Positions 10,315 to 45,803 of a stretch of DNA of 48,402 nucleotides are shown one piece after another (the first letter of the stretch is position 1; each line of letters starts with the position of its first letter). The stretch covers positions 1 to 48,402 of the forward strand of contig DASQXV010000082.1 of the NCBI GenBank assembly GCA_035639595.1. The letters run 5' to 3'. The stretch is from Thermoplasmata archaeon (GTDB lineage: Archaea; Thermoplasmatota; Thermoplasmata; RBG-16-68-12). The position numbers were made by a program, and so were the translations under genes. Below the pieces are notes generated by a model. That model was not told the DNA's origin. It did no database searches and saw nothing but the letters and a program-made list of their open reading frames with translations.

Positions 10315-10335
10315 TCCTGCCGCCGCGGGACCTTG

Positions 10336-11934: not shown

Positions 11935-12704
11935 AAGAGCTTGAGGATGTTCGCGCGCTCGATGCCCTCTCGGGTCATCGCGGCTTCGAGGGCCTTCAGG
12001 ATCTCCGGCGTGTTCGGCGCGTCCCCATGGACGCAGACGCTCTTCACCTTCTGCGGAATCGTCTCGCCGGTGACCGTCGCAACCGTCCCCTCCTTCAGCA
12101 GGCGCACGAAACGCCGGGCGACCTCCTCAGGATCCCAAGCCTTCTTGGCCCGCTCGAGCGCGAGGGAGCCGTTCGGGAGGTAGTTCAGCTCCACGAACCC
12201 CTCCGGGACGACCGGGAGACCGCGTCTCTCCGCGATCTTGTAGGTGAGGGAGTTCGGCATGGCGAACAGGAGTAGCTCGGGATCGTATTCCTGGATCCCC
12301 TCGACGATCCCTTCGGACAACTCCTCGTCATTCACAGCGACCGTGTACATGGCGCCGTGCGGCTTCACGTGCTGGAGCCTCATCCCGTTCGTCTTCAGGA
12401 ATCCCGCGAGGGCGCCCACCTGGTAGATGATGTCGTCCTTCAGCTCGTCCTTCGTGACCTGGATGTACCGCCGTCCGAACCCTTCGCGGTCCGGGAAGCC
12501 CGTGTGGGCCCCGACGCCGACGCCGTGCTTCTTCGCGAGCTGGACCGTCTTGCGCATCACGTGCGGGTCGCTCGCGTGGAATCCGCAGGCGATGTTCGCC
12601 GACGTGACGAAGGGCATGACCTCTTCGTCCCGCCCCAGTCTCCAGATGCCATAACTCTCACCCATGTCGCAGTTCACGTCCACTTGCACGACCATGCTCC
12701 TCAC
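11931..12704 (-). CDS. pxpA: LamB/YcsF family protein, 5-oxoprolinase subunit A type
   Basis: VDVNCDMGESYG...ANIACGFHASDP...HGVGVGAHTGFPD are characteristic LamB/YcsF motifs. Confidence 0.9.
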   Translation of the reverse strand: MRSMVVQVDVNCDMGESYGIWRLGRDEEVMPFVTSANIACGFHASDPHVMRKTVQLAKKHGVGVGAHTGFPDREGFGRRYIQVTKDELKDDIIYQVGALAGFLKTNGMRLQHVKPHGAMYTVAVNDEELSEGIVEGIQEYDPELLLFAMPNSLTYKIAERRGLPVVPEGFVELNYLPNGSLALERAKKAWDPEEVARRFVRLLKEGTVATVTGETIPQKVKSVCVHGDAPNTPEILKALEAAMTREGIERANILKLL

Positions 12705-14560: not shown

Positions 14561-14631
14561 CCCATTCCTCCCGTCCCAAGGGATCTTTGCCCGGGGATGA
14601 CGGACTGATTCGACGAGAAAGGGGGTGGACG

Positions 14632-15555: not shown

Positions 15556-15647
15556 GGGAGTTGCATGCCCCGGCCGCGATAACTAATTTTCCTCCCGACC
15601 TGGCGTGGGCTGAAAGGCTTTAGGAGCGACGGACGTTCCGCCGGAGG

Positions 15648-16988
15648 ATGTTCAACCGCGTCCTGGTCGCCAACCGGGGGGAGATCGCGGTGAGGGTGAT
15701 CCGGGGATGCCGCGAGCTCGGCGTCCGGACCGTCGCCGTGCATTCCGATCCGGACGCCGGGAGCCCTTTCGTCCGCCTCGCCGACGAGTCTGTCCCGCTG
15801 CCCGGCGCGAAACTTTCCGAGACCTATCTGGACATCCGGAAGATCCTCGACGCCGCCGCGAAGACGGGCGCGGAGGCGATCCACCCGGGATACGGACTGC
15901 TCTCGGAGAACCCGGCCTTCGCGGACGCCTGCCGACAGGAGGGGATCGTCTTCATCGGTCCGCCTGCGGCGTCCATGCGGGCGATGGGGGGCAAGGCCCC
16001 GTCCCGGGATCTCGTGAAGTCCCTCGGCCTCCCGACGATTCCCGGGAGCGAAGGGATCGTCCCGCGGGCCGAGGACGCCCTCGCGGTCGCCGATCGCCTG
16101 GGCTACCCGGTCCTCGTGAAAGCCTCCGCGGGCGGCGGCGGAATCGGGATGAAGATCGCCCATGGCCCGGACGAGTTGAGGACCGCCTTCGAGACGACCC
16201 AGCGGCTGGCCGTCGCCTCGTTCGGCGACGGACGGCTGATCGTGGAGAAGAACCTCGAGGAGCCGCGGCACGTGGAGATCCAGGTCGCGGCCGATGGTCA
16301 CGGTCGCACGGTCCATCTGTTCGAACGGGAGTGCACGGTCCAGCGCCGGTTCCAGAAGCTCCTCGAAGAGACCCCGTCGATGGCCTTGACGGACCCCCTC
16401 CGAGAGGCGATGGGGGATGCCGCGATCCGGATCGCGAGCGCGGCGGGCTACGTGAACCTGGGAACGGTGGAGTTCATCGTCTCGAAGGGTCGCTTCTACT
16501 TCCTCGAGATGAACACGCGCCTCCAGGTGGAGCATCCGATCACGGAGGTGACGACCGGGCTCGACCTGGTCCACCTCCAGTTGCAGATCGCGGCCGGCGA
16601 GGCCGGCCTCCCCGCCCAGGCCGAGATCGGACGCCGCGGGCACGGGATCGAGTGCCGCATCAACGCGGAGGACCCCGCGAAGAACTTCATGCCGAGTCCG
16701 GGGACAATCACGACATGGGTCGAGCCCGGAGGACCCCACGTCCGAGTGGACGCGGGGGTCACCGCCGGGCATACGGTCTCCTTCCTTTACGATCCTCTCC
16801 TCGCGAAACTCATCGTCTGGGCCGGCACGCGGGATCTCGCGATCCGCCGGATGGCGAGGGCCCTCTCGGAATTCCGGGTCGAGGGAGTGAAGACGACGAT
16901 CCCGTTCCACCGGGCGCTCCTCGAAAATGCGACGTTCCAATCGGGGCGCTATACGACCGCGATCGCGTCGGAAGTCAAGGTCGGTTGA
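15648..16988 (+). CDS. accC: biotin carboxylase (ATP-grasp) subunit
   Basis: MFNRVLVANRGEIAVRVIR..., HPGYGLLSEN, GYPVLVKASAGGGGIGM, EMNTRLQVEHPITE: full-length canonical biotin carboxylase. Confidence 0.95.
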   Translation: MFNRVLVANRGEIAVRVIRGCRELGVRTVAVHSDPDAGSPFVRLADESVPLPGAKLSETYLDIRKILDAAAKTGAEAIHPGYGLLSENPAFADACRQEGIVFIGPPAASMRAMGGKAPSRDLVKSLGLPTIPGSEGIVPRAEDALAVADRLGYPVLVKASAGGGGIGMKIAHGPDELRTAFETTQRLAVASFGDGRLIVEKNLEEPRHVEIQVAADGHGRTVHLFERECTVQRRFQKLLEETPSMALTDPLREAMGDAAIRIASAAGYVNLGTVEFIVSKGRFYFLEMNTRLQVEHPITEVTTGLDLVHLQLQIAAGEAGLPAQAEIGRRGHGIECRINAEDPAKNFMPSPGTITTWVEPGGPHVRVDAGVTAGHTVSFLYDPLLAKLIVWAGTRDLAIRRMARALSEFRVEGVKTTIPFHRALLENATFQSGRYTTAIASEVKVG

Positions 16989-17068
16989 GTCGCTCCGCGG
17001 CCCCGCCCCCTCGTCGGTCATTAGAATTATATCGGGTCCGGATATTCGGGCCGGCGGGTGAGTGGAGG

Positions 17069-17794
17069 TTGGCGGCGGGAGCCACGATCACTCGAGTCCG
17101 AACGGCCACGTACCATTTCTATCGATGGCGGTATGAGAGCGCGTTCCTCGTGAACCTCGGCTTGGCCGGGCTCTTCGCGTGCCTCACGGGATTCGGAGCG
17201 CTCGTGAAGGTGTACCTTCCTTGGACGCCGGTACCTATCACGGGCCAGCTCTTCTTCGTCCTGGCCTCCGCCGTCGTGCTTGGAAAACACTTCGGCGGCC
17301 TGAGCCAGATCCTGTACGCCCTCGTGGGTGTCCTCGCGGTCCCATGGTTCGCCGGACCGAACACGAATCCCCAGCCACTCTTCGACGGCGTCCCAGGTCT
17401 GTACCGCGGCGCCGGCGGCGTGGCGATCATTTCGGGGCCGACCTTCGGGTACATCCTCGGGTTCATCCTCACCGCGACGGCCATCGGCTGGGCGGTCGAT
17501 TCCCGGGTCCGGTATCGCCGCCCCGCGTCCCTTGGCCTCCTCCTCCTGGCGGGTATCGGGCTCGTCTATCTCCTCGGAGCCGGGTGGTTCTACGCTTGGT
17601 GGACGACCGGATTCGGCCTCGCGGCATCGAGGGGCGGCCTGTCCTTCGGCGACCTGATGGTGCGCGCGGTCATCCCATTCGTCCCCCTGGACCTCGTGAA
17701 GGCGGGAATCGTCCTGGGGATCGGGAGCCTCATCCTCCCGAACCGGCCCTTTGCCCGGGAGAAGGACGCGGGCTCCGCGGAACCCACCGTCTAG
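17069..17794 (+). CDS. bioY: BioY family biotin transporter (S component)
   Basis: The in-frame tail of ORF 15707..17794 becomes hydrophobic here. PVPITGQLFFVLASAVVLGKHFG and GPTFGYILGFIL match BioY. There is no ATG; the first in-frame start is TTG 17069 (GTG 17150 is the alternative), so the start is uncertain. Confidence 0.75.
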   Translation: MAAGATITRVRTATYHFYRWRYESAFLVNLGLAGLFACLTGFGALVKVYLPWTPVPITGQLFFVLASAVVLGKHFGGLSQILYALVGVLAVPWFAGPNTNPQPLFDGVPGLYRGAGGVAIISGPTFGYILGFILTATAIGWAVDSRVRYRRPASLGLLLLAGIGLVYLLGAGWFYAWWTTGFGLAASRGGLSFGDLMVRAVIPFVPLDLVKAGIVLGIGSLILPNRPFAREKDAGSAEPTV

Positions 17795-18294
17795 GTCGTG
17801 ACGACGGAGATGTCTTCCTTCAGGCGCTCGATCACGATCCGGGTATCGGAGCGCTCGATGTCCCGCATCGAGATGAGCTTGTAGACGATCCGATTCAGGT
17901 CCGCCCGGTTCTTCGCTCGGATGAGGATGACGTAGTCGGTATCTCCTAGGAGGAAGTAGCACGCCCAGACCCCCGGAATGCGGGGGAGCGCCTTGCTCAG
18001 CCTCTCATACGACTTCGGGTCGTATCGCGACCGGACGAAGCTCACGGCGAGGATGTCGTATCCGAGCTTGCTTGGATCGACCACCGCGGTGTAGCCCTTG
18101 ATCACCTGCTCGTCTTCGAGTCGCTTGATCCGATAATGGACCGAGGAGGAGGCGAGCCCGGTCATCTTCGCGAGGGCGCTCAGGTTCATCTTCGCGTCTT
18201 TCTGGAGACGTTCCAGGATGATCCGGTCCGGCCGCTCGATCTCGTCCGGCAGTTTCGGCGCCGTCCTCCGGCGCCGTCGCACCGAGACCGCCAT
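17791..18294 (-). CDS. Lrp/AsnC family transcriptional regulator
   Basis: ATG at 18294, 1 nt after the upstream dehydrogenase stop. ILERLQKDAKMNLSALAKMTGLASSSVHYRIKRLEDEQVIKGYTAVVD plus a C-terminal RAM-like domain. Confidence 0.9.
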   Translation of the reverse strand: MAVSVRRRRRTAPKLPDEIERPDRIILERLQKDAKMNLSALAKMTGLASSSVHYRIKRLEDEQVIKGYTAVVDPSKLGYDILAVSFVRSRYDPKSYERLSKALPRIPGVWACYFLLGDTDYVILIRAKNRADLNRIVYKLISMRDIERSDTRIVIERLKEDISVVTT

Positions 18295-18295
18295 C

Positions 18296-19189
18296 TCATC
18301 CCGCCTTCGCGAGTCCGTCGTAAACCTGGACGATCGCGGAGAAATCGCGGTCGCCCAGGCCCGCCGCAATCGCGGCCTGATGCAGTTCGTTGATGAGGGA
18401 GGTCAGGGGCATCGGCGCCTTCACGTGGTCCGCCGTCGAGAGGGCCAAGGTAAGGTCCTTCCGCATCAGGCGAAGGGCGAACGTCGGGACGAAATTCGCG
18501 TCCACGATCGCCTTCCCCTTGAACTCGAGGAGAGGGCACCGGGCCGATCCCTGCAGGATCACGTCGAGCATTGCCTTCGGGGAAAGGCCGGCCTTCTTCC
18601 CGAGGACGAGCGCCTCCGAGAAGCCCGCGAGGGTCGCCGCGAGGACGACGTTGTTCACGAGCTTCATGTGGCATCCCATCCCGTTGGGGCCCATGTGGAT
18701 GACGTTCTTCGCCATCGCCTGCAGGACGGGCATCACCGTCTCGAGGACGGCGGGGTCGCCGCCGACGATCACGGTCAGGGCGGCGTCTGCGGCGGCCTTC
18801 GCGCTGCCGGACACGGGGCAGTCGAGCATGACGATGCCGTGCCCCGACAACTCCCGCGCGATCGCGATGGAGTCCGCGGCCGAGATTGTGCTCATCTCGA
18901 GCACGCGGAGTCCAGGCCGAGCCGAGGCGGCCACGCCCTCCGGGCCCAGCAGGACGGCTCGGACGGCCGACGCATCGGCGAGCATCGTGATCACGACATC
19001 CGACTTCTCCGCGAGCTGCCGCGGACTATTCGCCCAGACGGCCCCTCTCTCGAGAATCGGCTTCGCCTTCGCCTCGGTCCGGTTCCACACGACGACTGAA
19101 AATCCGGCCTTCAGGACGTTGCTCGCCATGGGCATGCCCATGTTCCCGAGGCCGACGAACCCGACAACTTTCGTTCCCTCCACCTCCAT
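18296..19189 (-). CDS. NAD(P)-dependent beta-hydroxyacid dehydrogenase (3-hydroxyisobutyrate dehydrogenase family)
   Basis: VGFVGLGNMGMPMASNVLKAG dinucleotide fold. The ATG at 19189 lies ~30 nt downstream of a TATA-like GGTTTTTAGTG (19214-19224, minus). The maximal ORF reaches 19216. Confidence 0.9.
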   Translation of the reverse strand: MEVEGTKVVGFVGLGNMGMPMASNVLKAGFSVVVWNRTEAKAKPILERGAVWANSPRQLAEKSDVVITMLADASAVRAVLLGPEGVAASARPGLRVLEMSTISAADSIAIARELSGHGIVMLDCPVSGSAKAAADAALTVIVGGDPAVLETVMPVLQAMAKNVIHMGPNGMGCHMKLVNNVVLAATLAGFSEALVLGKKAGLSPKAMLDVILQGSARCPLLEFKGKAIVDANFVPTFALRLMRKDLTLALSTADHVKAPMPLTSLINELHQAAIAAGLGDRDFSAIVQVYDGLAKAG

Positions 19190-24852: not shown

Positions 24853-25650
24853 ATGGCCGTATCCGAGACCGCCGAGCGCGGATTGTACGCCGCCTCGATG
24901 GAGGTGCGTCACGATTGCTCCGTGGGCAATCTGTCCCGCAAGTTGCCCGATCTGCGGATCCTCCAGTGGTCCATGAGCCACCGGGAGATCTTCCAAGCTA
25001 CCGGGCCGGAACCGCAGCTTCAGGCGTTCCGGGACGCCGTCGTGTCCCAGTTCGGCGGACGGCACATGTACTCGACTCCGGAAGGGATGGTCCTCGTGAC
25101 CGAGGAAGCGTGCCACGCCTGGTCCGAGGAAGGGACGACGATCAGCTCGATCCTTTCCTCCGTCGGCGTCTGGGACATCCCGCCGATCGTGTACCGGGAC
25201 GGCTGGGAGTCGTGGCGGGTCATCGCGTGGAGCGATCGGTCGATCCGAGAGATGTTCGCCGAGATCCGCAAGATCGGAGAGCTCCGCCTCGGGTCCCTCC
25301 GCCCGATCGAGAACCTGGAGACGGAGCAGATGATGCTCATGCCCGCGTCGGATGTCTTCACCGGCCTCACGGACCGGCAGTCGTCCGCCCTCCTCCTCGG
25401 CCTCCGGCATGGGTACTACTCGGTCCCGAGCGAGACGGACATCCGACGTCTCGCGGACGGAGCGGGGCTCTCCGCATCCACGTTCAGCGAGCACCTTCGG
25501 AAGGCGGAGGCCCGAATCCTGCAAAACCTCCGGCCGTATCTCGAGGCGTACGCGATGCGGACACCGGGCGAATTGGCGGTGGCGGAAGTGCGCGCCGTCC
25601 CCGTGTCCCGCAGCCGCGAACGAGACACCGCCGTGTCATCGGGCCCCTAG
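24853..25650 (+). CDS. HTH_10 (bacterio-opsin activator-type) transcriptional regulator
   Basis: LTDRQSSALLLGLRHGYYSVPSETDIRRLADGAGLSASTFSEHLRKAEARIL is the archaeal HTH_10 signature. Confidence 0.85.
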   Translation: MAVSETAERGLYAASMEVRHDCSVGNLSRKLPDLRILQWSMSHREIFQATGPEPQLQAFRDAVVSQFGGRHMYSTPEGMVLVTEEACHAWSEEGTTISSILSSVGVWDIPPIVYRDGWESWRVIAWSDRSIREMFAEIRKIGELRLGSLRPIENLETEQMMLMPASDVFTGLTDRQSSALLLGLRHGYYSVPSETDIRRLADGAGLSASTFSEHLRKAEARILQNLRPYLEAYAMRTPGELAVAEVRAVPVSRSRERDTAVSSGP

Positions 25651-35226: not shown

Positions 35227-35634
35227 CTAACGCTGGGCGAACACCTTCGCGACGAACTCCCCGGTCGTCTGGTCGTACGTCCCCTCGAATCGTCCCTTCG
35301 CGGAGTTCAGCCACTCCAGGCCTTTCGACATCGTCTGGTAGGTGGCCTCGCCTTCCGCATGGATCGAGGTCGGGCTGATCATCTTCCCGGTGCCCTTCGC
35401 GCGCACGAGGATGAGATCCCCTTCGCCCGTCTGGTCGATCCCCCGCGACTCGAATTCGTACACGCCATCCGGCTTGAACAACGCATCGACGGTCTCCATG
35501 TGGGCGGCATCGTATTGTCCCTTCACCGTCCCCTGGAGATTGTAGGTCATCCGCACCCCGCCGGGCGTGAACTCCCCGATCGTCACCGAGGTCGTCTTCT
35601 CCATTAGCTCACCCAAGAATTCCTCTTCCGGCAT
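35227..35634 (-). CDS. hypothetical beta-rich protein
   Basis: 135 aa, GGAGG upstream of the ATG at 35634, balanced composition. No motif recognised. Confidence 0.55.
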   Translation of the reverse strand: MPEEEFLGELMEKTTSVTIGEFTPGGVRMTYNLQGTVKGQYDAAHMETVDALFKPDGVYEFESRGIDQTGEGDLILVRAKGTGKMISPTSIHAEGEATYQTMSKGLEWLNSAKGRFEGTYDQTTGEFVAKVFAQR

Positions 35635-36038: not shown

Positions 36039-36458
36039 TCAGTGCGTGTGCGCGTGCCCGTGGCCGTGATGGCCCTCGTTCGCGTCGGGCGCCGCTTCGC
36101 CCTTCGGATTGAAGCTCTGGCCGCAGCCGCAGGTGGACCAGTTGTTCGGATTGCTGACGAGGAACCCGCTCCCCGCGACGCTCTCCGCGTAGTCCACGCT
36201 TGAACCGTCGAGGTACTCCTTGCTGTTTGCGTCGATGAGGACCTTAAGCCCGTGGACTTGGACGACCTCGTCGCCTTCCTGGACGTTCCGGTCCAGGGCG
36301 AGTCCGTACCGGAATCCCGAGCAGCCGCCGCCTGCGACGTACATGCGGAGGTAGGTGTCCTCCGGGGTCCCCAGGGGCTTGCCCGTCTCCGGGTCGTTCC
36401 TCTGGATGAGCTCCTTCACCTTGCTCGCAGCGGTCTCGGTCAGGGTAACCTGAATCAT
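36039..36458 (-). CDS. iron-sulfur cluster assembly accessory protein (IscA/HesB/ErpA type) with His-rich tail
   Basis: GGGCSGFRY and the C-terminal CGCGQSF cysteine motifs, followed by EGHHGHGHAHTH. Confidence 0.9.
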   Translation of the reverse strand: MIQVTLTETAASKVKELIQRNDPETGKPLGTPEDTYLRMYVAGGGCSGFRYGLALDRNVQEGDEVVQVHGLKVLIDANSKEYLDGSSVDYAESVAGSGFLVSNPNNWSTCGCGQSFNPKGEAAPDANEGHHGHGHAHTH

Positions 36459-36545: not shown

Positions 36546-37004
36546 TCAGTCCAACCGCATCCCCATGTACCGCCGTTCAGACCGGAATCCGAGGGTCTCG
36601 TACACATGCCGGGCGCGTGCGTTGCCCTCCCCGACCTCGAGCTTGATCTTGTGGTGCCCGCGGGAGCGCGCCCACTCGCAGGCCCATTCGACGAGGGCCT
36701 TGCCAATCCCCTTGCCGCGGAAGTCCGGCGCGACCCAGATGTCGTACACGAAGGCGTGGGTCTCCGGGGTCAGGAAGCCGCTCTCCCCGAGGATCAGGTA
36801 GCCGAGGAACTCGCCGGCAGGGCCTTCCGCCACCCACCGTTCTGTGCGGTCCCCCTCGACGAAGGACTCGATCTTCCTGCGGAAGTGGCGCTCCCACGCG
36901 GCCCGGTCCAGCTGCCCCCGCTCGTCCGGCGGGAGGTCGTCCCAGACCGTCTGCAGGGTCGCCCGCCACATGATGGGCAGGTCCCCCCGCCGGGCCCGAC
37001 GCAT
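36546..37004 (-). CDS. GNAT family N-acetyltransferase
   Basis: ATG 37004. VAPDFRGKGIGKALVEWACEWAR acetyl-CoA binding motif (R/Q-x-x-G-x-G/A). Confidence 0.85.
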   Translation of the reverse strand: MRRARRGDLPIMWRATLQTVWDDLPPDERGQLDRAAWERHFRRKIESFVEGDRTERWVAEGPAGEFLGYLILGESGFLTPETHAFVYDIWVAPDFRGKGIGKALVEWACEWARSRGHHKIKLEVGEGNARARHVYETLGFRSERRYMGMRLD

Positions 37005-37094: not shown

Positions 37095-39791
37095 ATGAAT
37101 CGTTTCCCACAATTTATATTGGCCACCTCCCCTCCATTCCGCGTGATCCCCTCCCGGTGCGTCCGATGCGGCTCCGCGAGCCGGGATTTCCTGTGCCCGT
37201 CCTGCGTCGACTACCTGATCGCATACCACCCGCTCTGGCTCAACCCGGCCCTGCTGCCCGGCCCCTCCCTCCTCGACTGGGTCGCCCCGCGGGAGTCCCC
37301 CCTCCTTTCCGTCGATCTGGGGACCGTGGAGTGGACGGCCCTCCGATCGGAGCCGACCTCGGACGACGCCGCCAGGCTCGTCCGCCTCCTCGGCCTCGAC
37401 GAAGGCGAGCACCCGATCCTGAGCGTGGGAGACGCGGAGGTCCTCCACGGATTCCTCCGCGAGGCCCGTCGGTCGATGCCGTCGGATCCGGAGGCCCGGC
37501 AGGCCCTCGCGGCGACCTATCGATACCTCTCGACGTGCGGCTGGCTGCCCTCCCACCTGGCGTCCGAGTACCGGCTGCGAGCCAATCTCCTCGGTCCTGC
37601 GGGGTCCGAGCCCGAGACCGCGGCCGCGGCTGCACCCGAACCCCCGGTCCCCGAGGTTGTCGAGCCCGCTCCCGTTCCGCCCGCGCCGGGCCCGATCCAA
37701 GCCGAGCCGGCTCCGACCTCAGTGGACGAGGAACCGTCCGAGCCTCCGGCCGAACTCCCCGAGGCCGAAACGGATCTCGAGGACCTCGGCTTCGGTGAGG
37801 AAGGGATCGATCTCCCGGCTCCGGAGCCCTTTCCGCCGGAGCCCCTCCCCGGGCCGGAGCCGCCCCTCCCGATGCCGGAGCCGGTGCCGGGTCCCCAGCC
37901 GGAGCCCGAGCCTGAGCCGGAGCCCGAGGAGGACATCGACGAAGAGCGATGGCTCGAACTCGAGGCGATGAAGACCGCCCTCGAGCGGGAACGCGCGGAG
38001 CTGGAGTCCGCCTCCCACCTGAGGGCCGAGGCGATCCGGGCGAAGGAGAGCTCCCTCGAGCAACGGGAGCGGTCGATCGCGGCGAAGGAGCGGGAGGTGA
38101 TCGCGCAGGCCCAGGCCGCGACGGAGCGGCTGATCGCCCTCGAGAAAGATCAGGCCCGCCTCCAGGTCCTGCGATTCCTCGGGACAGTCCCGGGGATGGC
38201 GGAAGCCCAAGCGGACGTGATCGCGAGTGCGTTCCCGGACATGGCGTCCCTCCAGGCCGCGGACGCGAAGGCCCTGACCCAATGCCACGGCGTCACGGAG
38301 GCCCTCGCCCGCGCGGTCCGCTACGAGCTCGTGCCCGGGGAGGTCGAGGAGGAGCAGCACGCGATCCGCATCCGGGAGGAGGCCCAGGCCTTCCTCGAGG
38401 AAGGGGCCTACCAGGCCGCCCTGGACTGCTACGACCGGCTCCTGCGCGAGCGGCCCGAAGAGATCGGCCTCTGGTTCGACCGGGCTTCCGTCCTCGCGCT
38501 CCTGGACCGCCCCGCCGAGGCCCTGGATTGCTATCAAAAGGTCGTGGACCGGGAGCCGAACCATCGCCAGGCGTGGTTCGAGCGGGCGAACCTCCTGTTC
38601 GGACTCGGACGGCTTTCGGAGGCGATCGACTCGCTCCGCGAAGTCCTGCGGATCGCGCCGACGAAGACGGCGGACATCGCCCTGAAGGCGGAGCAACTTC
38701 GGCGTGACGGTCACCCGCACGAGGCCGCGATCCTCTACCAGGCGATCGTCGACGCGAACCCGGGGGACACGAGGTCCACCCTCGGGCTCGGGGATTCCCT
38801 GCTGAACCTCGGGGACGCGGAGGCCGCGGAAGCCCTGTTCTCCCGGGCCCTGGGGAAGAACCCGCAGAACGCGCCGATCCTCTTCCGCAAAGGGGAGTTG
38901 CTCGATCGGAAGGGCCGCTGGGGCGCCGCGATCCAGTACTACAATCGCGCGATCGCGCTCCAGTGGAACTTCCTGAGCCCATGGATCGCGAAGGGGTCGA
39001 TCCTCCTCGACCACAACCGCGCGCCGGAAGCCCTGGAGTGCTTCGAGAAAGTCCTCTCCTTCGATCCGAAGAACGTCGAGGCGTGGGCCGGAAAGGCCCG
39101 GGCCCACGCGGCCCTGGGTGACGTGGAGGCCGCCGCGAAGGCCCTCGAGCAGGCCTTGAGACAGGATCCGCAAAGCCGCTCGGTCGGGCGCGCGAGGGAG
39201 GCGGTTCAAGGGATGCCGCTCGCGCCCGCGCCTCCCGCGGCGCCGCCCGCGGCAGTGTCGCGGAAGCCCGTGAAGGAGCAGCGGGAAGAGAGTTTGGAAG
39301 AGCCTGTGGTGGGGGAGCGTTCGGAAGGGGCAAAGGAATCCACAGAAGACTGGACCGTCGAGCCGCCCGCGGCGGAGACCCCGCCCGATTTCAAGTCCCT
39401 CATCGAGGCGTTCGAGGAGATCGAGGAGGAGTCCCGCGAGGAAACCGAGCCCCCTCGGGATGGGCCCGCGCTGGGGGCGGACTTCCACAGCTTTGTGGAG
39501 TCCATCGAGCCCGACCAGGAGGACGTCCAGGTCCTGGTGCAGCTCGCGGAGCTGGCCCTCGAGGGCGGGGACCCGTCCATGGCCCTCGTCCGGTATGAGC
39601 AAGCCCTCCAGAAGGGGGAACGCAACGCGGATGCTTGGACGGGAAAGGGCATCGCGCTCCAGCAATTGGAACGGTACCGGGAGGCCCTCGAGGCGTACGA
39701 CCGCGCCCTCTCCCTCCGGCGGGACCACGAACTCGCCAAGAAGTGGCGGGCGACCGTCGTCCGCCACCTGGAGTCGGAGGGGACCCGATGA
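37095..39791 (+). CDS. Zn-ribbon / coiled-coil / helix-hairpin-helix / TPR repeat protein
   Basis: In-frame ATG 37095. GTG 37143 lies 23 nt after TTTATATT (37113-37120) and is my preferred leaderless start. CVRCGSASRDFLCPSC zinc ribbon, P/E-rich linker, heptad region, FLGTVPGMAEAQADVIASAF...CHGVTEALARAV HhH-like pair, many TPR-like A..AL..Y...L...P repeats. Confidence 0.8.
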   Translation: MNRFPQFILATSPPFRVIPSRCVRCGSASRDFLCPSCVDYLIAYHPLWLNPALLPGPSLLDWVAPRESPLLSVDLGTVEWTALRSEPTSDDAARLVRLLGLDEGEHPILSVGDAEVLHGFLREARRSMPSDPEARQALAATYRYLSTCGWLPSHLASEYRLRANLLGPAGSEPETAAAAAPEPPVPEVVEPAPVPPAPGPIQAEPAPTSVDEEPSEPPAELPEAETDLEDLGFGEEGIDLPAPEPFPPEPLPGPEPPLPMPEPVPGPQPEPEPEPEPEEDIDEERWLELEAMKTALERERAELESASHLRAEAIRAKESSLEQRERSIAAKEREVIAQAQAATERLIALEKDQARLQVLRFLGTVPGMAEAQADVIASAFPDMASLQAADAKALTQCHGVTEALARAVRYELVPGEVEEEQHAIRIREEAQAFLEEGAYQAALDCYDRLLRERPEEIGLWFDRASVLALLDRPAEALDCYQKVVDREPNHRQAWFERANLLFGLGRLSEAIDSLREVLRIAPTKTADIALKAEQLRRDGHPHEAAILYQAIVDANPGDTRSTLGLGDSLLNLGDAEAAEALFSRALGKNPQNAPILFRKGELLDRKGRWGAAIQYYNRAIALQWNFLSPWIAKGSILLDHNRAPEALECFEKVLSFDPKNVEAWAGKARAHAALGDVEAAAKALEQALRQDPQSRSVGRAREAVQGMPLAPAPPAAPPAAVSRKPVKEQREESLEEPVVGERSEGAKESTEDWTVEPPAAETPPDFKSLIEAFEEIEEESREETEPPRDGPALGADFHSFVESIEPDQEDVQVLVQLAELALEGGDPSMALVRYEQALQKGERNADAWTGKGIALQQLERYREALEAYDRALSLRRDHELAKKWRATVVRHLESEGTR
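37113..37120 (+). promoter_or_regulatory. TATA-box candidate for the TPR operon
   Basis: TTTATATT inside AATTTATATTGG. GTG 37143 lies 23 nt downstream of its end. Confidence 0.45.
37593..37946 (+). repeat. low-complexity Pro/Glu-rich coding tract
   Basis: 118 codons dominated by P, E and A, ending in PEPEPEPEPEPEE, encoded by CCGGAG/CCCGAG-type hexanucleotide iterations. Confidence 0.8.
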
Positions 39792-40705
39792 CCCTGTCCC
39801 CGGACGTCACGCACCGCTTCCTCCCGAGCGTGGACCGCCTTGAAGGCGCGATGCGGGCCGCCCGCCGCGCGCTCGAAAGGGGAGACCTCGAAGGCGCCCT
39901 CCGGGAGAACGACGCCGCGATCCAGTTGAAGCCGGAATACGACGCGGCGTGGCTCCTGCGGGCCCACATCTTCCGGAGGGACGGCAACATCCCCGGCGCG
40001 ATCGAGGCATTCGCCGCCGCCCTCAAGAGGAACGGGGAATCGGAGGAAGGCTGGCTCGGGCTCGCCTCGGCCCTGCACGATGTCGGGCGGTTCGTCGAGG
40101 AGGTCGAGGCGTACGATCGCCTCCTGGAACTCCACCCCCAGTCCGTGGAGGCTTGGATCAACAAGGGCGCCCTCCTCCACGAGCGCCAGGATTACCGCGG
40201 CGCGATCTCGTGCTACGACAAGGTCCTCGCGATGCGGCCGGAGCACGCGGGCGCCTGGAACAACAAGGGGGCCGCCCTCCTGCGCCTCGGGGACGAGGCG
40301 GGCGCCGCCCGATGCATCGAGGAAGCCCTCCTCCTGAATCCGGATTTCTACGACGCCCTGGCGAACCGCGCGGTCCTCGCGCGGAGGGCGAAGCGGCCCG
40401 GCGAGGCCGTCCTCTGGGCGGACCGCGCCCTTCGGATCCAGGAGGCCTCCTGGCTCTGGGTCGCGAAAGGGCAGGCCCATCTCGACCTCCAAGAGGCGAC
40501 CCTGGCCATGAAAGCCTTCGAGCGAGCCCTGGCGCTCGATCCCCGATCGCGGGCCGCCCGCGAGGGACTCGAGAGGGCGAAGGCGCAGCGGTCGAAACGG
40601 GACTTCTTTCGCGGCGTGTACGAGTGCTTCGGGACCTACCTCGCGGGAGACCCCGGCTGCGCGGAATGTGAGATCCGCATGCGGTGCACCCAGGTGAGCC
40701 CATGA
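39788..40705 (+). CDS. TPR repeat protein with C-terminal Cys4 motif
   Basis: ATG 39788 overlaps the upstream stop (ATGA). Seven or so TPR units. Ends in CFGTYLAGDPGCAECEIRMRC. Confidence 0.8.
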   Translation: MTLSPDVTHRFLPSVDRLEGAMRAARRALERGDLEGALRENDAAIQLKPEYDAAWLLRAHIFRRDGNIPGAIEAFAAALKRNGESEEGWLGLASALHDVGRFVEEVEAYDRLLELHPQSVEAWINKGALLHERQDYRGAISCYDKVLAMRPEHAGAWNNKGAALLRLGDEAGAARCIEEALLLNPDFYDALANRAVLARRAKRPGEAVLWADRALRIQEASWLWVAKGQAHLDLQEATLAMKAFERALALDPRSRAAREGLERAKAQRSKRDFFRGVYECFGTYLAGDPGCAECEIRMRCTQVSP

Positions 40706-41811
40706 GCGGACCGTCCCTGGCCGAAGTCGAGCACGCGGACTGGCCCTCTCTCCAACGGATGTGTTCGGACCTCGGGCTCAATCCGAAGGGCCGCAGCGCG
40801 GTCGTCCGGATGCGGGTGGCGGACCACGTCCGGCGGCGGTCCGCGCCCCCTCGGTGGCGGTCGACGCGGGAGCATCAGGCCGCTCTGCTACTGCGCCTCC
40901 ACCATCCGGACCTCGCGGAGCGGGCCTGGGAGTCGACCATCCAGCTCGACGCGCCCGCCCCCTGGGTCGGCCTCGGCCACGCGCAGCTCTCGGGCGGTCT
41001 CCTCCCGGAAGCCGCGAAGTCCTTCACCCGCGCGGCCGCGATGGGCGATCCGTCGGCGGACCTGCATCGCGCGGAGGTCCTCGCCGCGGGCGGCCATTTC
41101 GAGGGGGCCGGTCAGGCCTGCGAACGGTATCTCGCGGCTCACCCAGGCGATCTCCGCGGCTTGCTCTTGCAGGCGTCGTTCCTGAGACGAGCGGGCTTCG
41201 ACGCGGAGTCGGTCCGGGTCTTGCGGACGTCGGTGGATCTCCATCCGGACGTGCCCGGCATAGATCGGATGCTCGGCCGATCCCTCCTTCGGGCGGGTCA
41301 GCCCGCGGCCGCCGCGGAGGCTTTCGGCGAGGCCGTCCGAAAGGATCCCCACGATATCGCGGCCCTCGCGGACCAAGGAGCCGCCCTCCTCCTCGCGGGT
41401 CGGACGCGAGAGGCGATCGGCGTCCTCCGTGAAGCCCTTCGGCTCGATCCCCACCGGGCGGATGCGCTGAACAACCTCGGCGTCGCGTACCTCGCGATGG
41501 GCAATCATCGGTCGGCGTGCACGAACCTGGAGCGGGCCGCGAAGCAGGTCGAATCGGCGAGGATCCTTCTGAATCTCGGCAAAGCCTTGGAGGGCCTGGG
41601 AAAGACGGTGGGCGCGATGCGGGCCTACGAACAGGTCCTACGCATGCGTCCCGAAGATCCGGAGGCGATCGCGGGTCGCGAGCGACTCGCCCCCGGGGAG
41701 GAAAGGGGGTCGGGGAAACCCGCGAAACGCGCGAGACGGCCCGCCCGAAGGCGGAAGAAATCGGATCGCTCGCCGCCCGAGGCCCCGCCCACGGCTCCCG
41801 GGACGCCGTAG
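40702..41811 (+). CDS. SAP/HeH-like motif + TPR repeat protein with basic tail
   Basis: ATG 40702 overlaps the upstream stop (ATGA). WPSLQRMCSDLGLNPKGRSAVVRMRVADHV, TPR units, C-terminal KPAKRARRPARRRKK. Confidence 0.8.
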   Translation: MSGPSLAEVEHADWPSLQRMCSDLGLNPKGRSAVVRMRVADHVRRRSAPPRWRSTREHQAALLLRLHHPDLAERAWESTIQLDAPAPWVGLGHAQLSGGLLPEAAKSFTRAAAMGDPSADLHRAEVLAAGGHFEGAGQACERYLAAHPGDLRGLLLQASFLRRAGFDAESVRVLRTSVDLHPDVPGIDRMLGRSLLRAGQPAAAAEAFGEAVRKDPHDIAALADQGAALLLAGRTREAIGVLREALRLDPHRADALNNLGVAYLAMGNHRSACTNLERAAKQVESARILLNLGKALEGLGKTVGAMRAYEQVLRMRPEDPEAIAGRERLAPGEERGSGKPAKRARRPARRRKKSDRSPPEAPPTAPGTP

Positions 41812-41871
41812 CTTCATCGGATCCCGCGGCAGCCCAGAAGCCTCATTATCCGGGGTTCCATCGATGCATGG

Positions 41872-42534
41872 ATGGCGATCCGCCCGACGGATTGGGAGGG
41901 CGTCTCCACGGAAGGGCCGTGGCTTCTCACCCGGAATCTCGTGCCCGGCGTCTCGGTCTATGGAGAAGGCCGGCCCGTCGAGGGCGGCCCCGAATACCGC
42001 CGCTGGGACGCGAACCGGAGCAAGCTGGCGGCGTACCTGAAGTGCGGCGGCCGCGTGTGGCCTTTCCACGAGGACACGTCGGTCCTCTACTTGGGCGCGG
42101 GCAGCGGGACGACGGTGAGTCACCTCTCCGACGTGTGCGCGCGCGGGACGATTGCCGCAGTCGAGATCTCTCCACGGTCCTTCCGAGACTTGTTGAAACT
42201 GGCGGAGGCGCGGCCGAACGTCCTCCCGATCCTGGGCGACGCCGCCCGCCCAGAGGGCTACGGCAGCCGGGTGGGTCCCGTATCCGTCCTGTATCAGGAC
42301 GTCGCCCAGCGGGAGCAAGCGGAAATCTTCCGAAGGAACCTCGAGTGGCTTCGGCGTGGCGGGGTGGGCTTCCTCATGGTCAAGGCCCGATCCGAAGACG
42401 TCGCGGCGAAACCCGCGGACGTCTATGCGGCCGCAAAAGGCAAGCTCGCGAGCACGGGCCTGGACGTCCTCGACGTTCGTCCCCTCACGCCGTATCAGAC
42501 GGACCACGCGGCCATCGTCGTGAAGAAGTCATAG
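41872..42534 (+). CDS. flpA: fibrillarin-like rRNA/tRNA 2'-O-methyltransferase
   Basis: YRRWDANRSKLAAYL, VLYLGAGSGTTVSHLSDV, LYQDVAQREQAEI, FLMVKARSEDV: canonical archaeal fibrillarin. TATA-like TCATTATC sits 22-29 nt upstream of the ATG. Confidence 0.95.
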   Translation: MAIRPTDWEGVSTEGPWLLTRNLVPGVSVYGEGRPVEGGPEYRRWDANRSKLAAYLKCGGRVWPFHEDTSVLYLGAGSGTTVSHLSDVCARGTIAAVEISPRSFRDLLKLAEARPNVLPILGDAARPEGYGSRVGPVSVLYQDVAQREQAEIFRRNLEWLRRGGVGFLMVKARSEDVAAKPADVYAAAKGKLASTGLDVLDVRPLTPYQTDHAAIVVKKS

Positions 42535-42565
42535 CATCATCCCGGCACGCGAGGTTCCGCTCGGC

Positions 42566-43351
42566 GTGTCTCGGGCCCCTAGCACGATGTACGAACGGTG
42601 GGCACGATACTACGATGCACTCTATCATGGGGTCGTTGACTACGAGGGCGACGTCGATTTCCTCGAAGCGGTTTTTCGGCGATACCGCGCGACGCCGAAG
42701 CGCATCCTCGATCTCGGCTGCGGCACCGGCAACCACGACCTCCAACTCGCGGGCCGAGGGTATGACGTGACCGGCATCGATCGGTCCCCGCGCATGCTCT
42801 CGTTTGCCCGGAAGAAGGCGACTGGGATGAGGCATCCGCCCCGCTTCGTCCGAGCAGAAATGCAGTCCTTCCGCCTCGGATACCAATCCGACGCGGCAAT
42901 CTGCATGTTCGGCGGTTTCGGCTACTTGGTCCGTCGGTCCGAAGCGCTCCGATGCCTCCGCACCCTCCACGAACATCTCGTCCCCCGAGGCTTGTTCGTC
43001 TTTGAATATTGGCAAACGAGCGGGGTGCGCCCCGGTACCCAGTCGTGGCTGGATCGGTCGGACGCCGGGTTCGAAATCCTCCGCCTCTCGGAGGGGACGT
43101 TCGACCGAGTCCGGTCTCTCCTCGCGATCGATTTCTCTTTTCTCGTGCTCGAGGGCCGCAAGCTCGTGGAACGATTCACGGAACGCCATGTGATCCGAAC
43201 CTATGCGCGGTCGCAGTTGGGATCCCTCCTTCGGGAGTCGGGGTTCTCGCGGGTGGGCGAGTTCGCGGGGACCCCCGGTCGAAAACGTTTCTCTCCGGTC
43301 ACAGCCGGCGTGTTCCGCATCATGGCCGTCGCGCGTCGAAGCGAATCTTAA
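42566..43351 (+). CDS. class I SAM-dependent methyltransferase
   Basis: ILDLGCGTGNHDLQLAGRGYDVTGIDRSPRML (motif I plus the acidic post-I residue). GTG 42566 or ATG 42587 start. Confidence 0.85.
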   Translation: MSRAPSTMYERWARYYDALYHGVVDYEGDVDFLEAVFRRYRATPKRILDLGCGTGNHDLQLAGRGYDVTGIDRSPRMLSFARKKATGMRHPPRFVRAEMQSFRLGYQSDAAICMFGGFGYLVRRSEALRCLRTLHEHLVPRGLFVFEYWQTSGVRPGTQSWLDRSDAGFEILRLSEGTFDRVRSLLAIDFSFLVLEGRKLVERFTERHVIRTYARSQLGSLLRESGFSRVGEFAGTPGRKRFSPVTAGVFRIMAVARRSES

Positions 43352-43390
43352 ATACGTCCCCGCGGTATGCGAAGGCCCTTCGAGGAAACC

Positions 43391-43846
43391 ATGGCCCGCC
43401 TCCATGCACACCGCAAGGGCAAGAGCGGTTCGACCCGCCCCTTCCTCAAGGCCAACCCGAAGTGGGTCACGGCCGAGAAGGGGGAGCTGGAGGACACGAT
43501 CCTGCGTCTCCATCAGGAGGGGCTGTCAGCCGCGGCGATTGGCGTCCGCGTCCGGGACGGGCTCGGGGTGCCGAGCGTCCGCCTCGCGACGGGCCGCAGC
43601 GTGACCCAGATCCTGAAGTCGAAAGGCGCGAAGATCGCGATCCCGGACGACCTCGCGGGCCTGATCAAGAGGGCGACGAACCTCCAGACCCACCTCAAGG
43701 AACATGGGAAGGACCTGAGCAACAAGAGGGGCCTGCAGCTCATCGAGTCGAAGATTCGCAGGCTTTCGCGGTACTACAAGGACCGCGGGATCCTCCCCAA
43801 GAGCTGGGACTACGCCTCGAAGGAATCGGAGCTCCAAGTGAAGTAG
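43391..43846 (+). CDS. rps15: 30S ribosomal protein S15 (archaeal uS15)
   Basis: MARLHAHRKGKSGSTRP...IPDDLAGLIKRATNLQTHLKEHGKDLSNKRGLQLIESKIRRLSRYY matches archaeal S15P over its full length. Confidence 0.95.
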   Translation: MARLHAHRKGKSGSTRPFLKANPKWVTAEKGELEDTILRLHQEGLSAAAIGVRVRDGLGVPSVRLATGRSVTQILKSKGAKIAIPDDLAGLIKRATNLQTHLKEHGKDLSNKRGLQLIESKIRRLSRYYKDRGILPKSWDYASKESELQVK

Positions 43847-43854
43847 GTGGCCCG

Positions 43855-45222
43855 ATGGTGAAGCGCCTGGAAGACCTGGCGCCGCAGGGCCTCCTGGATC
43901 GCGCCCGGAAGGCGGCGGAGCTCGTCGATGGCGTCTCGCGGGTCCGCGTCTTCTGCCACTACGACCCGGACGGCACGACCTCCGCCTCGATCCTTGCGAG
44001 GGCCCTCATGCGCCGCGGGAAGAGGTTCCACGCATCGATGGCCCACGCGCTCGACCGCAATTCCGCGGCGCGGCTCAAGGAAGAGACGAACGAGCTCCTG
44101 ATCGTGAGCGACATGGGGTCCGCCCAGCTCGACCTCCTGGAAGGCCTCCCCTACCCCGTGATCGTCCTCGACCACCACAAGCCCCTGCGCGACTCGAGCA
44201 AGGTCGCCCACGTGAACCCGCACCTCGCGGGCGTCGATGGGGCGCGGGCGATGTGCGGGGCCACGACGACCTGGCTGTTCTCCCTCCTCCTGGACGACGC
44301 GAACTGGGACCTCGCGGGGATCGCCGCGGCGGGGGCGATCGGCGACAAGCAGGCTCTCGGCGGCTACACCGGCGTTAACGCCGCCCTGTTCGGAGAGGCG
44401 GTCGACCGCAAGGTCCTCGTCCCGGAGCGGCGGCTCGCGTTGCGGGATCTCCCGCTGAAGAAGGCGGTCGCCCAGTCCATCGAACCGTACTTCCGCGGGC
44501 TCTCCGGCCGGCCGGACGCCGCGGCGGACTTCCTCCGCGGCCTCGGCCTCGATCCCGAGACCGCGGTGCGGCAGCTCGGGCCCGAGGACCGTCGCAAGCT
44601 CACCTCCGCGCTCGCGCTGCGGCTCCTCGAGCAAGGGTCCGCGCCGGAAGCCCTCGAGGTCCTCGTCGAGGACCGCTACTGGATCGAGCCGAACCAGATG
44701 TACGCCCAAGACCTCGAGGCGCTCGTGAACAGCTGCGATCGGCTCGGGCAGGAAGGGCTCGGCATGGCGGTCTGCCTCGGCGACGGGGAGGCGCTCCGGA
44801 AAGCGGAGAAGCTCCTGGGGGACTACACGACGAACGTCCTCGGGGTCCTCGCGGGCCTCGAGTCGAAGGGGCTCTTCGCAAAGAAGCACATCCAGTTCTT
44901 CTACGCGGACGACGCGAGCCTCGCCGGATCGATTGCGGGGACCGGGATGCTCTTCTTCTTCGACCAGTCGAAGCCCACCCTCGGGCTGAGCGTCCTCGAC
45001 GCCGTGACGAAGGTCTCCGCGCGGGCGACGCGCGGGTTGGTCGCCGCGGGCGTGGACCTCGCGGTCGCCTTGCGGGACGCCGCGGCCGAGGTCGACGGGA
45101 ACGGCGGCGGGCACAACATCGCCTCGGGAGCGACGGTCCCCAAGGGGAAGGAGGACAAGTTCCTCACCCTGGTCGATGAAGGGATCGGCCGACAGCTCGC
45201 GGCCGCGTCGAAGCCTCAGTAG
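43855..45222 (+). CDS. DHH/DHHA1 phosphoesterase, archaeal RecJ-like (GAN/Cdc45-type)
   Basis: ATG 43855. VFCHYDPDGTTSASIL, SDMG, VLDHH and GGGHNIASGA motifs. The S15-RecJ-like adjacency is a common archaeal arrangement. Confidence 0.85.
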   Translation: MVKRLEDLAPQGLLDRARKAAELVDGVSRVRVFCHYDPDGTTSASILARALMRRGKRFHASMAHALDRNSAARLKEETNELLIVSDMGSAQLDLLEGLPYPVIVLDHHKPLRDSSKVAHVNPHLAGVDGARAMCGATTTWLFSLLLDDANWDLAGIAAAGAIGDKQALGGYTGVNAALFGEAVDRKVLVPERRLALRDLPLKKAVAQSIEPYFRGLSGRPDAAADFLRGLGLDPETAVRQLGPEDRRKLTSALALRLLEQGSAPEALEVLVEDRYWIEPNQMYAQDLEALVNSCDRLGQEGLGMAVCLGDGEALRKAEKLLGDYTTNVLGVLAGLESKGLFAKKHIQFFYADDASLAGSIAGTGMLFFFDQSKPTLGLSVLDAVTKVSARATRGLVAAGVDLAVALRDAAAEVDGNGGGHNIASGATVPKGKEDKFLTLVDEGIGRQLAAASKPQ

Positions 45223-45803
45223 GAGTCGAGGAGCCGGCTCACCTCGCGGGCCTCGAGGTCCGTCCGGAGGGCGGGGGACTCCAGGACCTTCAGGTTCCGC
45301 TCGAGCAGGGCGAGCTCCTTCTCCTCGAGGGTCTCCGGGCTCACCGGAAGGACGATGATCGCTCGGCGTTGCATCACGAACTCGTTCACATGCTCGACGA
45401 ACATGAGGGTCTGCAGGAACCCGTTGTTGATGATCAGGTACTCCAGGCCGTCCAGGAGGATGACGCCCTCGCCGTTGTTGTCCTCGATGAATTTCTGGAT
45501 CACCTTCGCGAGCGTCCCGATCGCGGTCGGGTTGTGGAAATCCTCGCCAGGCGTGTGACTGAGCCAGATCACGCGGACGTCTGACAGGCCGCGCTCCCGG
45601 CGCACCCTCTCCGGATACTGCCGCGTGATGCACAGCCCCGGGATCTTCTGGGCCACGAGGGTCTCGAAAAGCCGGTAGCTCAGCTCCGGTTTCTTCTCCT
45701 TCACGAGATAGCAGACGCCCTTCTCCATGTCGATGGGCATGCCCGTACGGGCCGACTCAGCCTCGGTGCCCATCGCCTGTTCCTGGGGTTGCACCCATCC
45801 CAT
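45216..45803 (-). CDS. DUF835 domain protein
   Basis: GLCITRQYPERV...VIWLS...VILLDGLEYLIINNGF...FVEHVNEFV fits my memory of DUF835. GGAGG 6 nt upstream of the ATG at 45803. 18 nt downstream of orc1/cdc6. Confidence 0.7.
   Translation of the reverse strand: MGWVQPQEQAMGTEAESARTGMPIDMEKGVCYLVKEKKPELSYRLFETLVAQKIPGLCITRQYPERVRRERGLSDVRVIWLSHTPGEDFHNPTAIGTLAKVIQKFIEDNNGEGVILLDGLEYLIINNGFLQTLMFVEHVNEFVMQRRAIIVLPVSPETLEEKELALLERNLKVLESPALRTDLEAREVSRLLDSY

Follow-up and report, generated by a model that had tools for sequence, protein, structure and literature searches.

The window analysed here is a stretch of 48,402 nt, the whole of contig DASQXV010000082.1 (assembly GCA_035639595.1) of a Thermoplasmata archaeon. 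It contains an operon of three consecutive genes on the forward strand, called genes 1, 2 and 3 below, whose products consist largely of tetratricopeptide repeats (TPRs) (Table 1). Genes in the window were called from frame-specific G+C content and translation; the G+C content of the window is 65% and its genes are archaeal in type. A preliminary description had reported three same-strand open reading frames (ORFs), joined by ATGA stop/start overlaps, dominated by TPRs and free of any recognisable enzyme domain, and our analysis bears this out. Translation yields the three ORFs and the overlaps are found at 39788-39791 and 40702-40705. Pfam TPR_1 matches the products of genes 1, 2 and 3 with E-values of 4.6e-46, 3e-29 and 3.3e-20 (153, 100 and 71 bits, against a cut-off of 27.8), which places all three in the TPR clan. 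In Pfam and NCBIfam profile searches no enzyme domain was detected in the three proteins, and TPR was the sole domain above the curated thresholds. They have no membrane-spanning segment (no 19-residue window exceeds a hydropathy of 1.0) and are predicted to be cytoplasmic.

The upstream end of the operon is defined by a conserved promoter element. An ATG at 37095 had been put forward as a start of gene 1, and was ruled out since it lies 5' of a TATA box that is conserved in 20 loci. The start is instead the GTG at 37143, which is kept across related loci. The TATA box, TTTATATT, has no strong TATA-like counterpart elsewhere on the + strand from 36 to 46 kb, and in 20/20 related loci the element yTTTATAt has the same spacing (-30) to the GTG of gene 1. 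Because the TATA box sits 30 nt before GTG 37143, the gene 1 mRNA is probably leaderless, starting at or beside this codon.

Both gene junctions have the same design. At the junction of genes 1 and 2, an RTGA (TGATG in two loci) with GGAGG upstream is present in 17 loci, and at the junction of genes 2 and 3 the sequence GGAGGTGA is followed by RTGA in 14 loci. In ~15 species-level genomes the RTG start lies within the RTGA at both junctions, with the Shine-Dalgarno (SD) element GGAGG(T)G 7-9 nt upstream. Such a layout would be expected if translation were coupled by termination and reinitiation, which would keep the subunits in near-fixed ratios.

Related loci were surveyed to determine how widely this organisation is kept. 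A scan of species-representative genomes identified 21 loci, all of them in Thermoplasmata or 'Methanobacteriota' metagenome-assembled genomes and many of them from soil, and four metagenome contigs encode an identical gene 2 protein in an unchanged gene order. Gene 2 orthologues form 147 clusters at E<=1e-20; among 120 listed, almost all have a length of 303-307 aa. The N-terminal domain of gene 1 gave 13 matches in a word-indexed search of 5.8 billion proteins, and when 1.84 billion cluster representatives were searched exhaustively with HMMER, 32 of them matched. On all contigs of sufficient length, tblastn recovers the order IscA-like gene (-), GNAT acetyltransferase gene (-), gene 1, gene 2, gene 3, fibrillarin gene, and the most divergent loci within the clade (L025 and L026) keep the trio together with its overlaps. 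Gene order, RTGA overlaps and SD elements are kept in ~15 species-level genomes and the homologues are not scattered single genes. This agrees with the earlier suggestion that the three genes form a unit rather than a random group of TPR genes, and we read the trio as a conserved unit with translational coupling that is maintained by purifying selection. The operon appears to be restricted to one lineage of uncultured soil and sediment Thermoplasmata. It had not been recognised as a described system, which agrees with our searches: no database name goes past 'TPR protein' or 'hypothetical', no paper on it was found, and a literature search for a described system returned nothing relevant apart from the architecture of FAN1 (see below).

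The product of gene 1 begins with the C-x2-C-x8-C-x2-C motif of the preliminary description, a putative zinc ribbon. The orthologues in the alignment keep all four cysteines (4/4), as do the distant relatives P0221 and P0224-P0228. The Pfam family DZR_2 matches the ribbon at E 0.0076 (16.5 bits, below the cut-off of 27), and the AlphaFold2 (AF2) model has short strands at residues 5 and 12. The domain that follows is all-helical in the AF2 model (predicted local distance difference test, pLDDT, 80.3). Searches of Pfam, of PDB sequences and of PDB folds (E<1) gave no match for it, and it is a new helical domain without a known relative. It is joined to the rest of the protein by the Pro/Glu linker noted earlier, whose core (PEPPLPLPEP...PEPEPEPE) is conserved in the orthologue alignment and which gives a TonB-like low-complexity match (E 1.8e-5). 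The next segment, which had been described as a heptad coiled coil, is instead a helix with ~45% charged residues and a weak heptad signal (hydrophobic occupancy of positions a and d 0.75 in the best 28-aa window, with Ala counted); a coiled coil here is possible.

Two helix-hairpin-helix (HhH)-like motifs had been noticed between this helix and the first TPR block, and they are supported by profile searches. The gene 1 protein of the window matches HHH_2 at E 4.1e-5 (24.1 bits, just below the cut-off of 27) and HHH_5 at E 5.2e-5. HHH_2 is matched by 14/14 orthologues (best E 7.2e-7) and HHH_5 by 13/14 (best E 2.5e-8), and the distant orthologue P0221 reaches 32.8 bits with HHH_2, above the cut-off. 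The PDB profile matches of the region are all (HhH)2 domains, namely those of FAAP24, the N-terminal extension of haloarchaeal L32e, DisA, ERCC1 (of ERCC1/XPF), RuvA and Hef; single PDB sequences give marginal E-values (0.014-0.9). The gene 1 segment aligns with these proteins over both hairpins but differs from them in its context, being flanked by the charged helix and a TPR solenoid and having no catalytic domain as partner. Membership in the HHH_2 and HHH_5 families makes a bona fide (HhH)2 domain at this position a well supported prediction. The remainder of the protein consists of two TPR blocks split by an acidic linker, as had been described. The first block is the best-conserved part of gene 1 in distant relatives (41% identity to L032).

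In gene 2, the TPRs are followed by a C-terminal cysteine motif (C280-x10-C291-x2-C294-x5-C300), in agreement with the spacing first reported. None of the four cysteines varies among 15 orthologues, nor do the Y, F, G and DPG of the motif. A profile search with this Cys4 tail gave no Pfam or PDB match. The tail shares the C-x2-C-x5-C core, and a Pro/Gly before the second cysteine, with the C-x6-C-x2-C-x5-C loop of EndoIII and MutY; however, its first spacing is 10 rather than 6 and there is no HhH-GPD or nuclease domain, so it does not qualify as an Endonuclease III-type [4Fe-4S] loop. The core also recalls the [4Fe-4S] sites of EndoIII, WhiB and Cas4 (C-xn-C-x2-C-x5-C), a resemblance that we take to be a lead only. 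A gene for an IscA-type Fe-S carrier lies near gene 2, but such a gene is also found near the operon in clades without the Cys4 motif. The Cys4 tail and the gene 1 zinc ribbon are both predicted metal sites.

The N-terminal motif quoted for gene 3 in the preliminary description is present and strongly conserved across the orthologues, and its assignment as SAP/HeH is weakly supported. Its predicted shape fits: in the AF2 model, helix 14-24, loop 25-31 and helix 32-47 (pLDDT 85-92) are consistent with the SAP consensus of a ~35-residue helix-extended loop-helix (L..L...L...GL...G.K..L..RL). Profile scores, on the other hand, are below any curated threshold. Pfam SAP (PF02037) matches 4/12 orthologues (best E 0.057) and Terminase_6 matches 6/12. 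An hhalign comparison with seven SAP sequences aligned in register (P 4.9e-4, probability 32%), a search against PDB sequences gave no match to the motif, and Foldseek with the model of residues 1-150 returned only TPR structures, the SAP motif being masked. A SAP-like motif in gene 3 is thus plausible, not established. The Lys/Arg tail KPAKRARRPARRRKK is present as claimed, and a tail that is always basic, though variable in length and sequence, is found in every gene 3 orthologue.

Table 1. Features of the three-gene TPR operon and of the adjoining genes (positions in the window).
Feature	Position	Strand	Remarks
IscA/ErpA-like Fe-S carrier gene	36039..36458	-	Pfam Fe-S_biosyn E 1.5e-15; ErpA E 2e-34
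GNAT acetyltransferase gene	36546..37004	-	152 aa; divergent from gene 1; Pfam Acetyltransf_1/3/7/10
TATA box	37113..37120	+	TTTATATT; 30 nt 5' of gene 1 GTG
Gene 1	37143..39791	+	882 aa, isoelectric point (pI) 4.7; zinc ribbon, helical domain, Pro/Glu spacer, charged helix, (HhH)2, TPR, acidic linker, TPR
Gene 1, putative zinc ribbon	37158..37205	+	aa 6-21; C-x2-C-x8-C-x2-C
Gene 1, helical N-domain	37206..37592	+	aa 22-150, ~130 aa
Gene 1, Pro/Glu-rich spacer	37593..37946	+	aa 151-268, 118 aa
Gene 1, charged alpha-helical segment	37947..38165	+	aa 269-341
Gene 1, (HhH)2 domain	38166..38330	+	aa 342-396
Gene 1, TPR block 1	38355..39212	+	~aa 405-690; Pfam TPR_1/2/16 stretches
Gene 1, acidic linker	39213..39527	+	conserved motif DFxSL..AFEEIE ... 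DFxSFVESIEP (alignment)
Gene 1, C-terminal TPR block	39528..39788	+	best TPR_1 stretch aa 829-862; conserved KWRxTCLRHL end
SD-like GGAGGGG and ATGA overlap	39776..39791	+	gene 1 stop / gene 2 start; conserved across loci
Gene 2	39788..40705	+	305 aa; TPR and C-terminal Cys4 tail
Gene 2, C-x10-C-x2-C-x5-C motif	40625..40687	+	C-terminus; YECFG....GDPGC..CEI...C
SD-like AGGTGA and ATGA overlap	40691..40705	+	gene 2 stop / gene 3 start; conserved across loci
Gene 3	40702..41811	+	369 aa, pI 10.2; SAP/HeH-like N-terminus, TPR, polybasic tail
Gene 3, SAP/HeH-like helix-loop-helix	40735..40842	+	aa 12-47
Gene 3, Lys/Arg tail	41716..41760	+	KPAKRARRPARRRKK
Fibrillarin gene (flpA)	41872..42534	+	60 nt 3' of gene 3; Pfam Fibrillarin E 4.3e-64

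More distant relatives have a two-gene form of the operon. At locus L030, a 753-aa protein (P0221) with the full gene 1 architecture precedes one TPR protein of 570 aa, and 22 nt after the latter comes the fibrillarin gene. The fused partners of L030 and L032 (560-570 aa) are collinear with gene 2 and then with the TPR region of gene 3: identity of the L030 partner to gene 2 is 44.7% over aa 7-194 (E 1e-45), and the matches to the gene 3 TPRs have E-values of 2e-9 (L030) and 3e-12 (L032). The Cys4 motif is absent from these fused relatives. The 570-aa partner of L030 lacks both the Cys4 tail and the SAP-like motif; its C-terminus carries an HhH-like motif (HHH_5 E 1.6e-4) along with a basic tail. 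The occurrence of HhH plus basic tail in place of SAP plus basic tail reads as a module swap that would preserve the same kind of activity. An apparent 500-aa 'fusion' at ~12.9-14.0 kb of locus L022 is an artefact, with runs of N interrupting genes 2 and 3.

A further set of relatives makes up a short-form sister clade (P0224, P0226 and P0228; loci L029, L031, L032, L034, L035 and L037-L039). Here gene 1 encodes only 519-561 aa, made up of the zinc ribbon, the N-domain, a Pro-rich linker and TPRs. The 560-aa partner, again collinear with gene 2 and then gene 3, has a conserved N-terminal domain of ~100 aa instead of the SAP-like motif. This domain has no Pfam match at E<=1, and a pattern-based guess that it is restriction-endonuclease-like was dropped on the same result. 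The order in these loci is IscA-like gene (-), small Ras/Roc-like GTPase gene (+), GNAT gene (-), short gene 1 and partner, with the fibrillarin gene 1.4-5.5 kb further on, behind unrelated genes. The GTPase gene (~280 aa) is always found between the IscA-like gene and the GNAT gene in this clade. Taking both forms together, the constant core is a GNAT gene divergent from gene 1, followed by one or more TPR partners of the gene 2/gene 3 type, with a fibrillarin gene nearby. The Cys4 tail, the SAP-like motif, the charged helix and the HhH domain are clade-specific decorations of this core.

The GNAT gene is the most constant neighbour of the operon. It is placed head-to-head with gene 1, across a shared promoter region of ~140 bp, in all clades and in every related locus except L025, where the IscA/GNAT pair is missing upstream and an ankyrin-repeat gene is found instead. 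Its Pfam assignment is precomputed, on the identical gene in L001-L003. The best curated match of its product is RimI (E 3.6e-12, below the cut-off), Naa20 matches at E 2.6e-7, and the structures of Naa20, Naa30 and RimI were matched as well. A small GNAT gene beside large TPR proteins with basic segments of nucleic-acid-binding type resembles the make-up of eukaryotic NatA and NatB. The TPR proteins could accordingly be Naa15/Naa25-like auxiliary subunits that wrap the GNAT, with the complex anchored on the ribosome through contacts of the HhH domain, the SAP-like motif and the basic tail with rRNA. The Pfam family NatA_aux_su (PF12569) gives weak matches in gene 1 (E 1.9e-4) and gene 2 (E 4.8e-5). 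However, these span one or two TPRs (~50 residues each of a 515-position profile) and score 20.9 and 22.9 bits against a cut-off of 33.3, so that neither protein belongs to the family. For the GNAT, antibiotic and polyamine acetyltransferases are as good a match or a better one, and it is not specifically Naa10/Naa20-like. It is encoded on the opposite strand without translational coupling to the trio, and the trio of L025 has no GNAT nearby. Archaeal Nat enzymes are not known to need auxiliary subunits. We consider a NatA-like complex quite unlikely.

A fibrillarin gene lies downstream of the operon in every locus that is long enough, at distances from 22 nt to 5.5 kb. In the window it is followed on the same strand by genes for an S-adenosylmethionine (SAM) methyltransferase, ribosomal protein S15 and a DHH/DHHA1 RecJ-like protein, and then on the other strand by DUF835 and Orc1/Cdc6 genes; the RecJ-like and Orc1/Cdc6 genes are 2-4 kb downstream of the operon. 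On the 5' side are the IscA/ErpA-like gene, which is kept nearby in close and distant loci, a cyclophilin gene and metabolic genes. The link to information-processing genes drawn in the preliminary description therefore holds for fibrillarin, but the GNAT and IscA-like genes are equally well conserved as neighbours and the linkage may be residual synteny. No T5 run occurs on the + strand before 42.6 kb (the first is at 42672) and a weak, partly conserved CCTCATTA is found ~30 nt 5' of the fibrillarin gene. Transcription may possibly read through from the operon into this gene. Between 37113 and 45222 (+), genes 1, 2 and 3 and those for fibrillarin, the SAM methyltransferase, S15 and the RecJ-like DHH protein are seven same-strand genes with short gaps, maybe one long transcription unit with weak internal promoters.

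Archaeal nop5 genes usually lie directly upstream of flpA. In the window (41812-41871) and in related loci it is gene 3, not nop5, that precedes the fibrillarin gene. Gene 3 occupies the usual place of nop5 and has a basic tail, as Nop56/58 do; unlike them it is a TPR protein, and in some relatives other genes stand before the fibrillarin gene. No Nop or NOP5NT domain was detected in genes 1-3, in the 48-kb window or in the related loci examined, and none of the three proteins is a member of the Nop5 (Nop56/58) family. Several intervening or adjacent genes were observed in individual loci. In L025, a 928-aa AAA_16 and TPR_12 (STAND-like) gene lies at 9431-12217 between gene 3 and the fibrillarin gene, and in L026 small ORFs are found in this interval. 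In L032, on a 510-kb contig, a 791-aa protein with no Pfam/NCBIfam match is encoded directly 5' of the fibrillarin gene (16270-18645); it has an N-terminal hydrophobic segment and an anchor-like C-terminal end. One conceivable role is that of a previously unknown ribosome-biogenesis or ribosome-associated platform that binds rRNA through the HhH domain, the SAP-like motif and the basic tail and presents fibrillarin and/or the GNAT to their substrates, either as an archaeal equivalent of the NatA-type complexes that TPR proteins anchor in eukaryotes or as a Nop5-independent way of deploying fibrillarin. In this specific form we think such a platform very unlikely.

The preliminary description proposed a scaffold associated with DNA, RNA or chromatin. 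A DNA or chromatin scaffold would bind chromosomal DNA through the HhH domain and SAP-like motif and organise repair, replication or segregation factors; FAN1 and the HhH modules of FAAP24/ERCC1 offer analogies. The best PDB profile matches of the HhH region are indeed DNA-repair (HhH)2 domains (FAAP24, ERCC1, RuvA, Hef and DisA), but the rRNA-binding HhH extension of haloarchaeal L32e is matched at the same E-value, and the short-form clade has no HhH domain. FAN1 is composed of a UBZ zinc finger, SAP, TPR and a VRR_nuc nuclease, with SAP directly N-terminal to the TPR region (PMC4201288). The operon combines a putative zinc module, a candidate SAP-type motif and TPRs, and in gene 3 the SAP-like motif likewise stands directly before the TPRs. 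It differs from FAN1 in distributing its modules among three polypeptides and in having canonical TPRs of 34 residues, and no sequence homology to FAN1 was detected outside the TPRs. VRR_nuc or any other nuclease domain is absent (no match in genes 1-3 at Pfam/NCBIfam E<=0.1), as are helicase and ATPase domains in the Pfam and NCBIfam searches, so the operon does not encode a FAN1. The RecJ-like and Orc1/Cdc6 genes downstream would suit a DNA-associated role. Pairing of RecJ and S15 genes is, however, a general archaeal feature and not specific to the operon. A DNA scaffold seems to us rather improbable.

It could also be argued that the complex acts on proteins alone, as a TPR assembly factor or co-chaperone in which the small modules are structural or protein-binding and the neighbouring genes are inherited synteny. 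This would be in keeping with TPR being the only domain above curated thresholds, with the dispensability of HhH in one clade and of the Cys4 tail and SAP in two, and with the synteny of the entire block from IscA to Orc1; (HhH)2 domains can, moreover, be protein dimerisation modules, as in ERCC1-XPF and FAAP24-FANCM. Such a factor would not explain why HhH (gene 1), the SAP-like motif with a basic tail (gene 3), and HhH with a basic tail (the L030 fusion) recur independently, or why gene 3, with its pI of 10.2, has a polybasic tail in every orthologue. We regard a protein-only factor as unlikely. An anti-phage defence system was also considered and rejected: the only PADLOC match was a TPR-driven one of gene 1 to a PrimPol N-terminal region, with none for gene 2, gene 3 or the GNAT.

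The reading that we prefer, tentatively and at somewhat less than an even chance, is that the operon encodes a co-translated, nucleic-acid-tethered TPR adaptor of uncultured Thermoplasmata, whose likeliest setting would be the maturation and modification of ribosomes and rRNA. The three TPR proteins would assemble together as subunits of one cytoplasmic adaptor. The products of genes 2 and 3 are expected to act together because they form a single polypeptide in deeper relatives (a 'Rosetta stone' relationship). Anchoring of the assembly to duplex nucleic acid would fall to the (HhH)2 domain (gene 1) together with the SAP-like motif and the polybasic tail (gene 3), the zinc-ribbon/helical head of gene 1 would be held at a distance on its ~120-aa Pro/Glu spacer, and the Cys4 tail of gene 2 would be a structural metal site (Zn or Fe-S). 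The TPR grooves would recruit client proteins. The likeliest clients would be the products of the constant neighbours, the divergent GNAT and fibrillarin, and this is the weakest step of the proposal. By this account the proteins belong to the known TPR superfamily and would form an uncharacterised, lineage-specific multi-subunit adaptor with a novel N-domain.

A nucleic-acid-tethered adaptor is favoured over a protein-only factor because HhH, SAP-like motif plus basic tail, and HhH plus basic tail recur in different combinations. A ribosomal setting is ranked first, with low confidence in the clients, because the neighbours, which point loosely that way, include a GNAT with RimI as its best curated match, fibrillarin, a methyltransferase and S15, and because the HhH profile fits the rRNA-binding L32e extension no less well than DNA-repair domains. 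Several observations weigh against this adaptor. The SAP support is weak, and gene 1 of the short-form clade has neither the charged helix nor the HhH domain, so that tethering is not demonstrably universal. The GNAT is generic in its matches and has gone from the neighbourhood in L025, and the short-form clade has unrelated genes between the operon and the fibrillarin gene. Synteny extends over the whole stretch from IscA to Orc1, and the constancy of the neighbours may come from slow rearrangement instead of a common function. The earlier statement that all accessory modules are of nucleic-acid-binding type also goes too far: the zinc ribbon and the Cys4 tail are to be read as metal sites, which may serve other purposes.

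Other parts of the window were also annotated. No tRNA or Rfam RNA family was found anywhere in it, and neither repeated ORB-like elements nor an AT-rich unwinding region that would indicate a replication origin beside Orc1 was found in 33-37 kb and 45-48 kb. A 135-aa ORF at 35227-35634 (-) has a coding-type G+C pattern but no Pfam/NCBIfam match, and L001 and L002 have a gene call at the corresponding position; the 400 bp after it (35.6-36.0 kb) are the most AT-rich stretch nearby (54% G+C). Antisense ORFs of 342, 607 and 682 aa at 42485-43513 (-), 43810-45633 (-) and 37719-39767 (-) have no family matches and were dismissed as by-products of high G+C content, not genes. At 11931-16988 there is a PxpA/B/C-like 5-oxoprolinase set (LamB_YcsF, CT_A_B and CT_C_D), beside genes for a copper-binding-domain protein and a biotin carboxylase and downstream of an ATP-binding cassette (ABC) transporter operon (8.4-11.6 kb). 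A regulator with HVO_A0563_N and HTH_10 domains, of a type best known from haloarchaea, is encoded at 24853-25650 (+).

Eukaryotes have well-known TPR adaptors that bring enzymes to ribosomes or chromatin (Naa15, FAN1, APC/C subunits), but hardly any have been described in archaea. The TPR trio reported here, or its two-gene version, with swappable HhH and SAP-like modules, is retained by an entire clade of Thermoplasmata that are abundant, uncultured and found in soil and sediment. Its present value lies in a clean family definition and in testable predictions. If the proteins do tether enzymes to rRNA or DNA, this adaptor logic would exist in archaea too, and the operon would offer a way into the organisation of fibrillarin or N-acetylation in these archaea. 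Failing that, the trio would still be a well-defined orphan family with a new helical domain.

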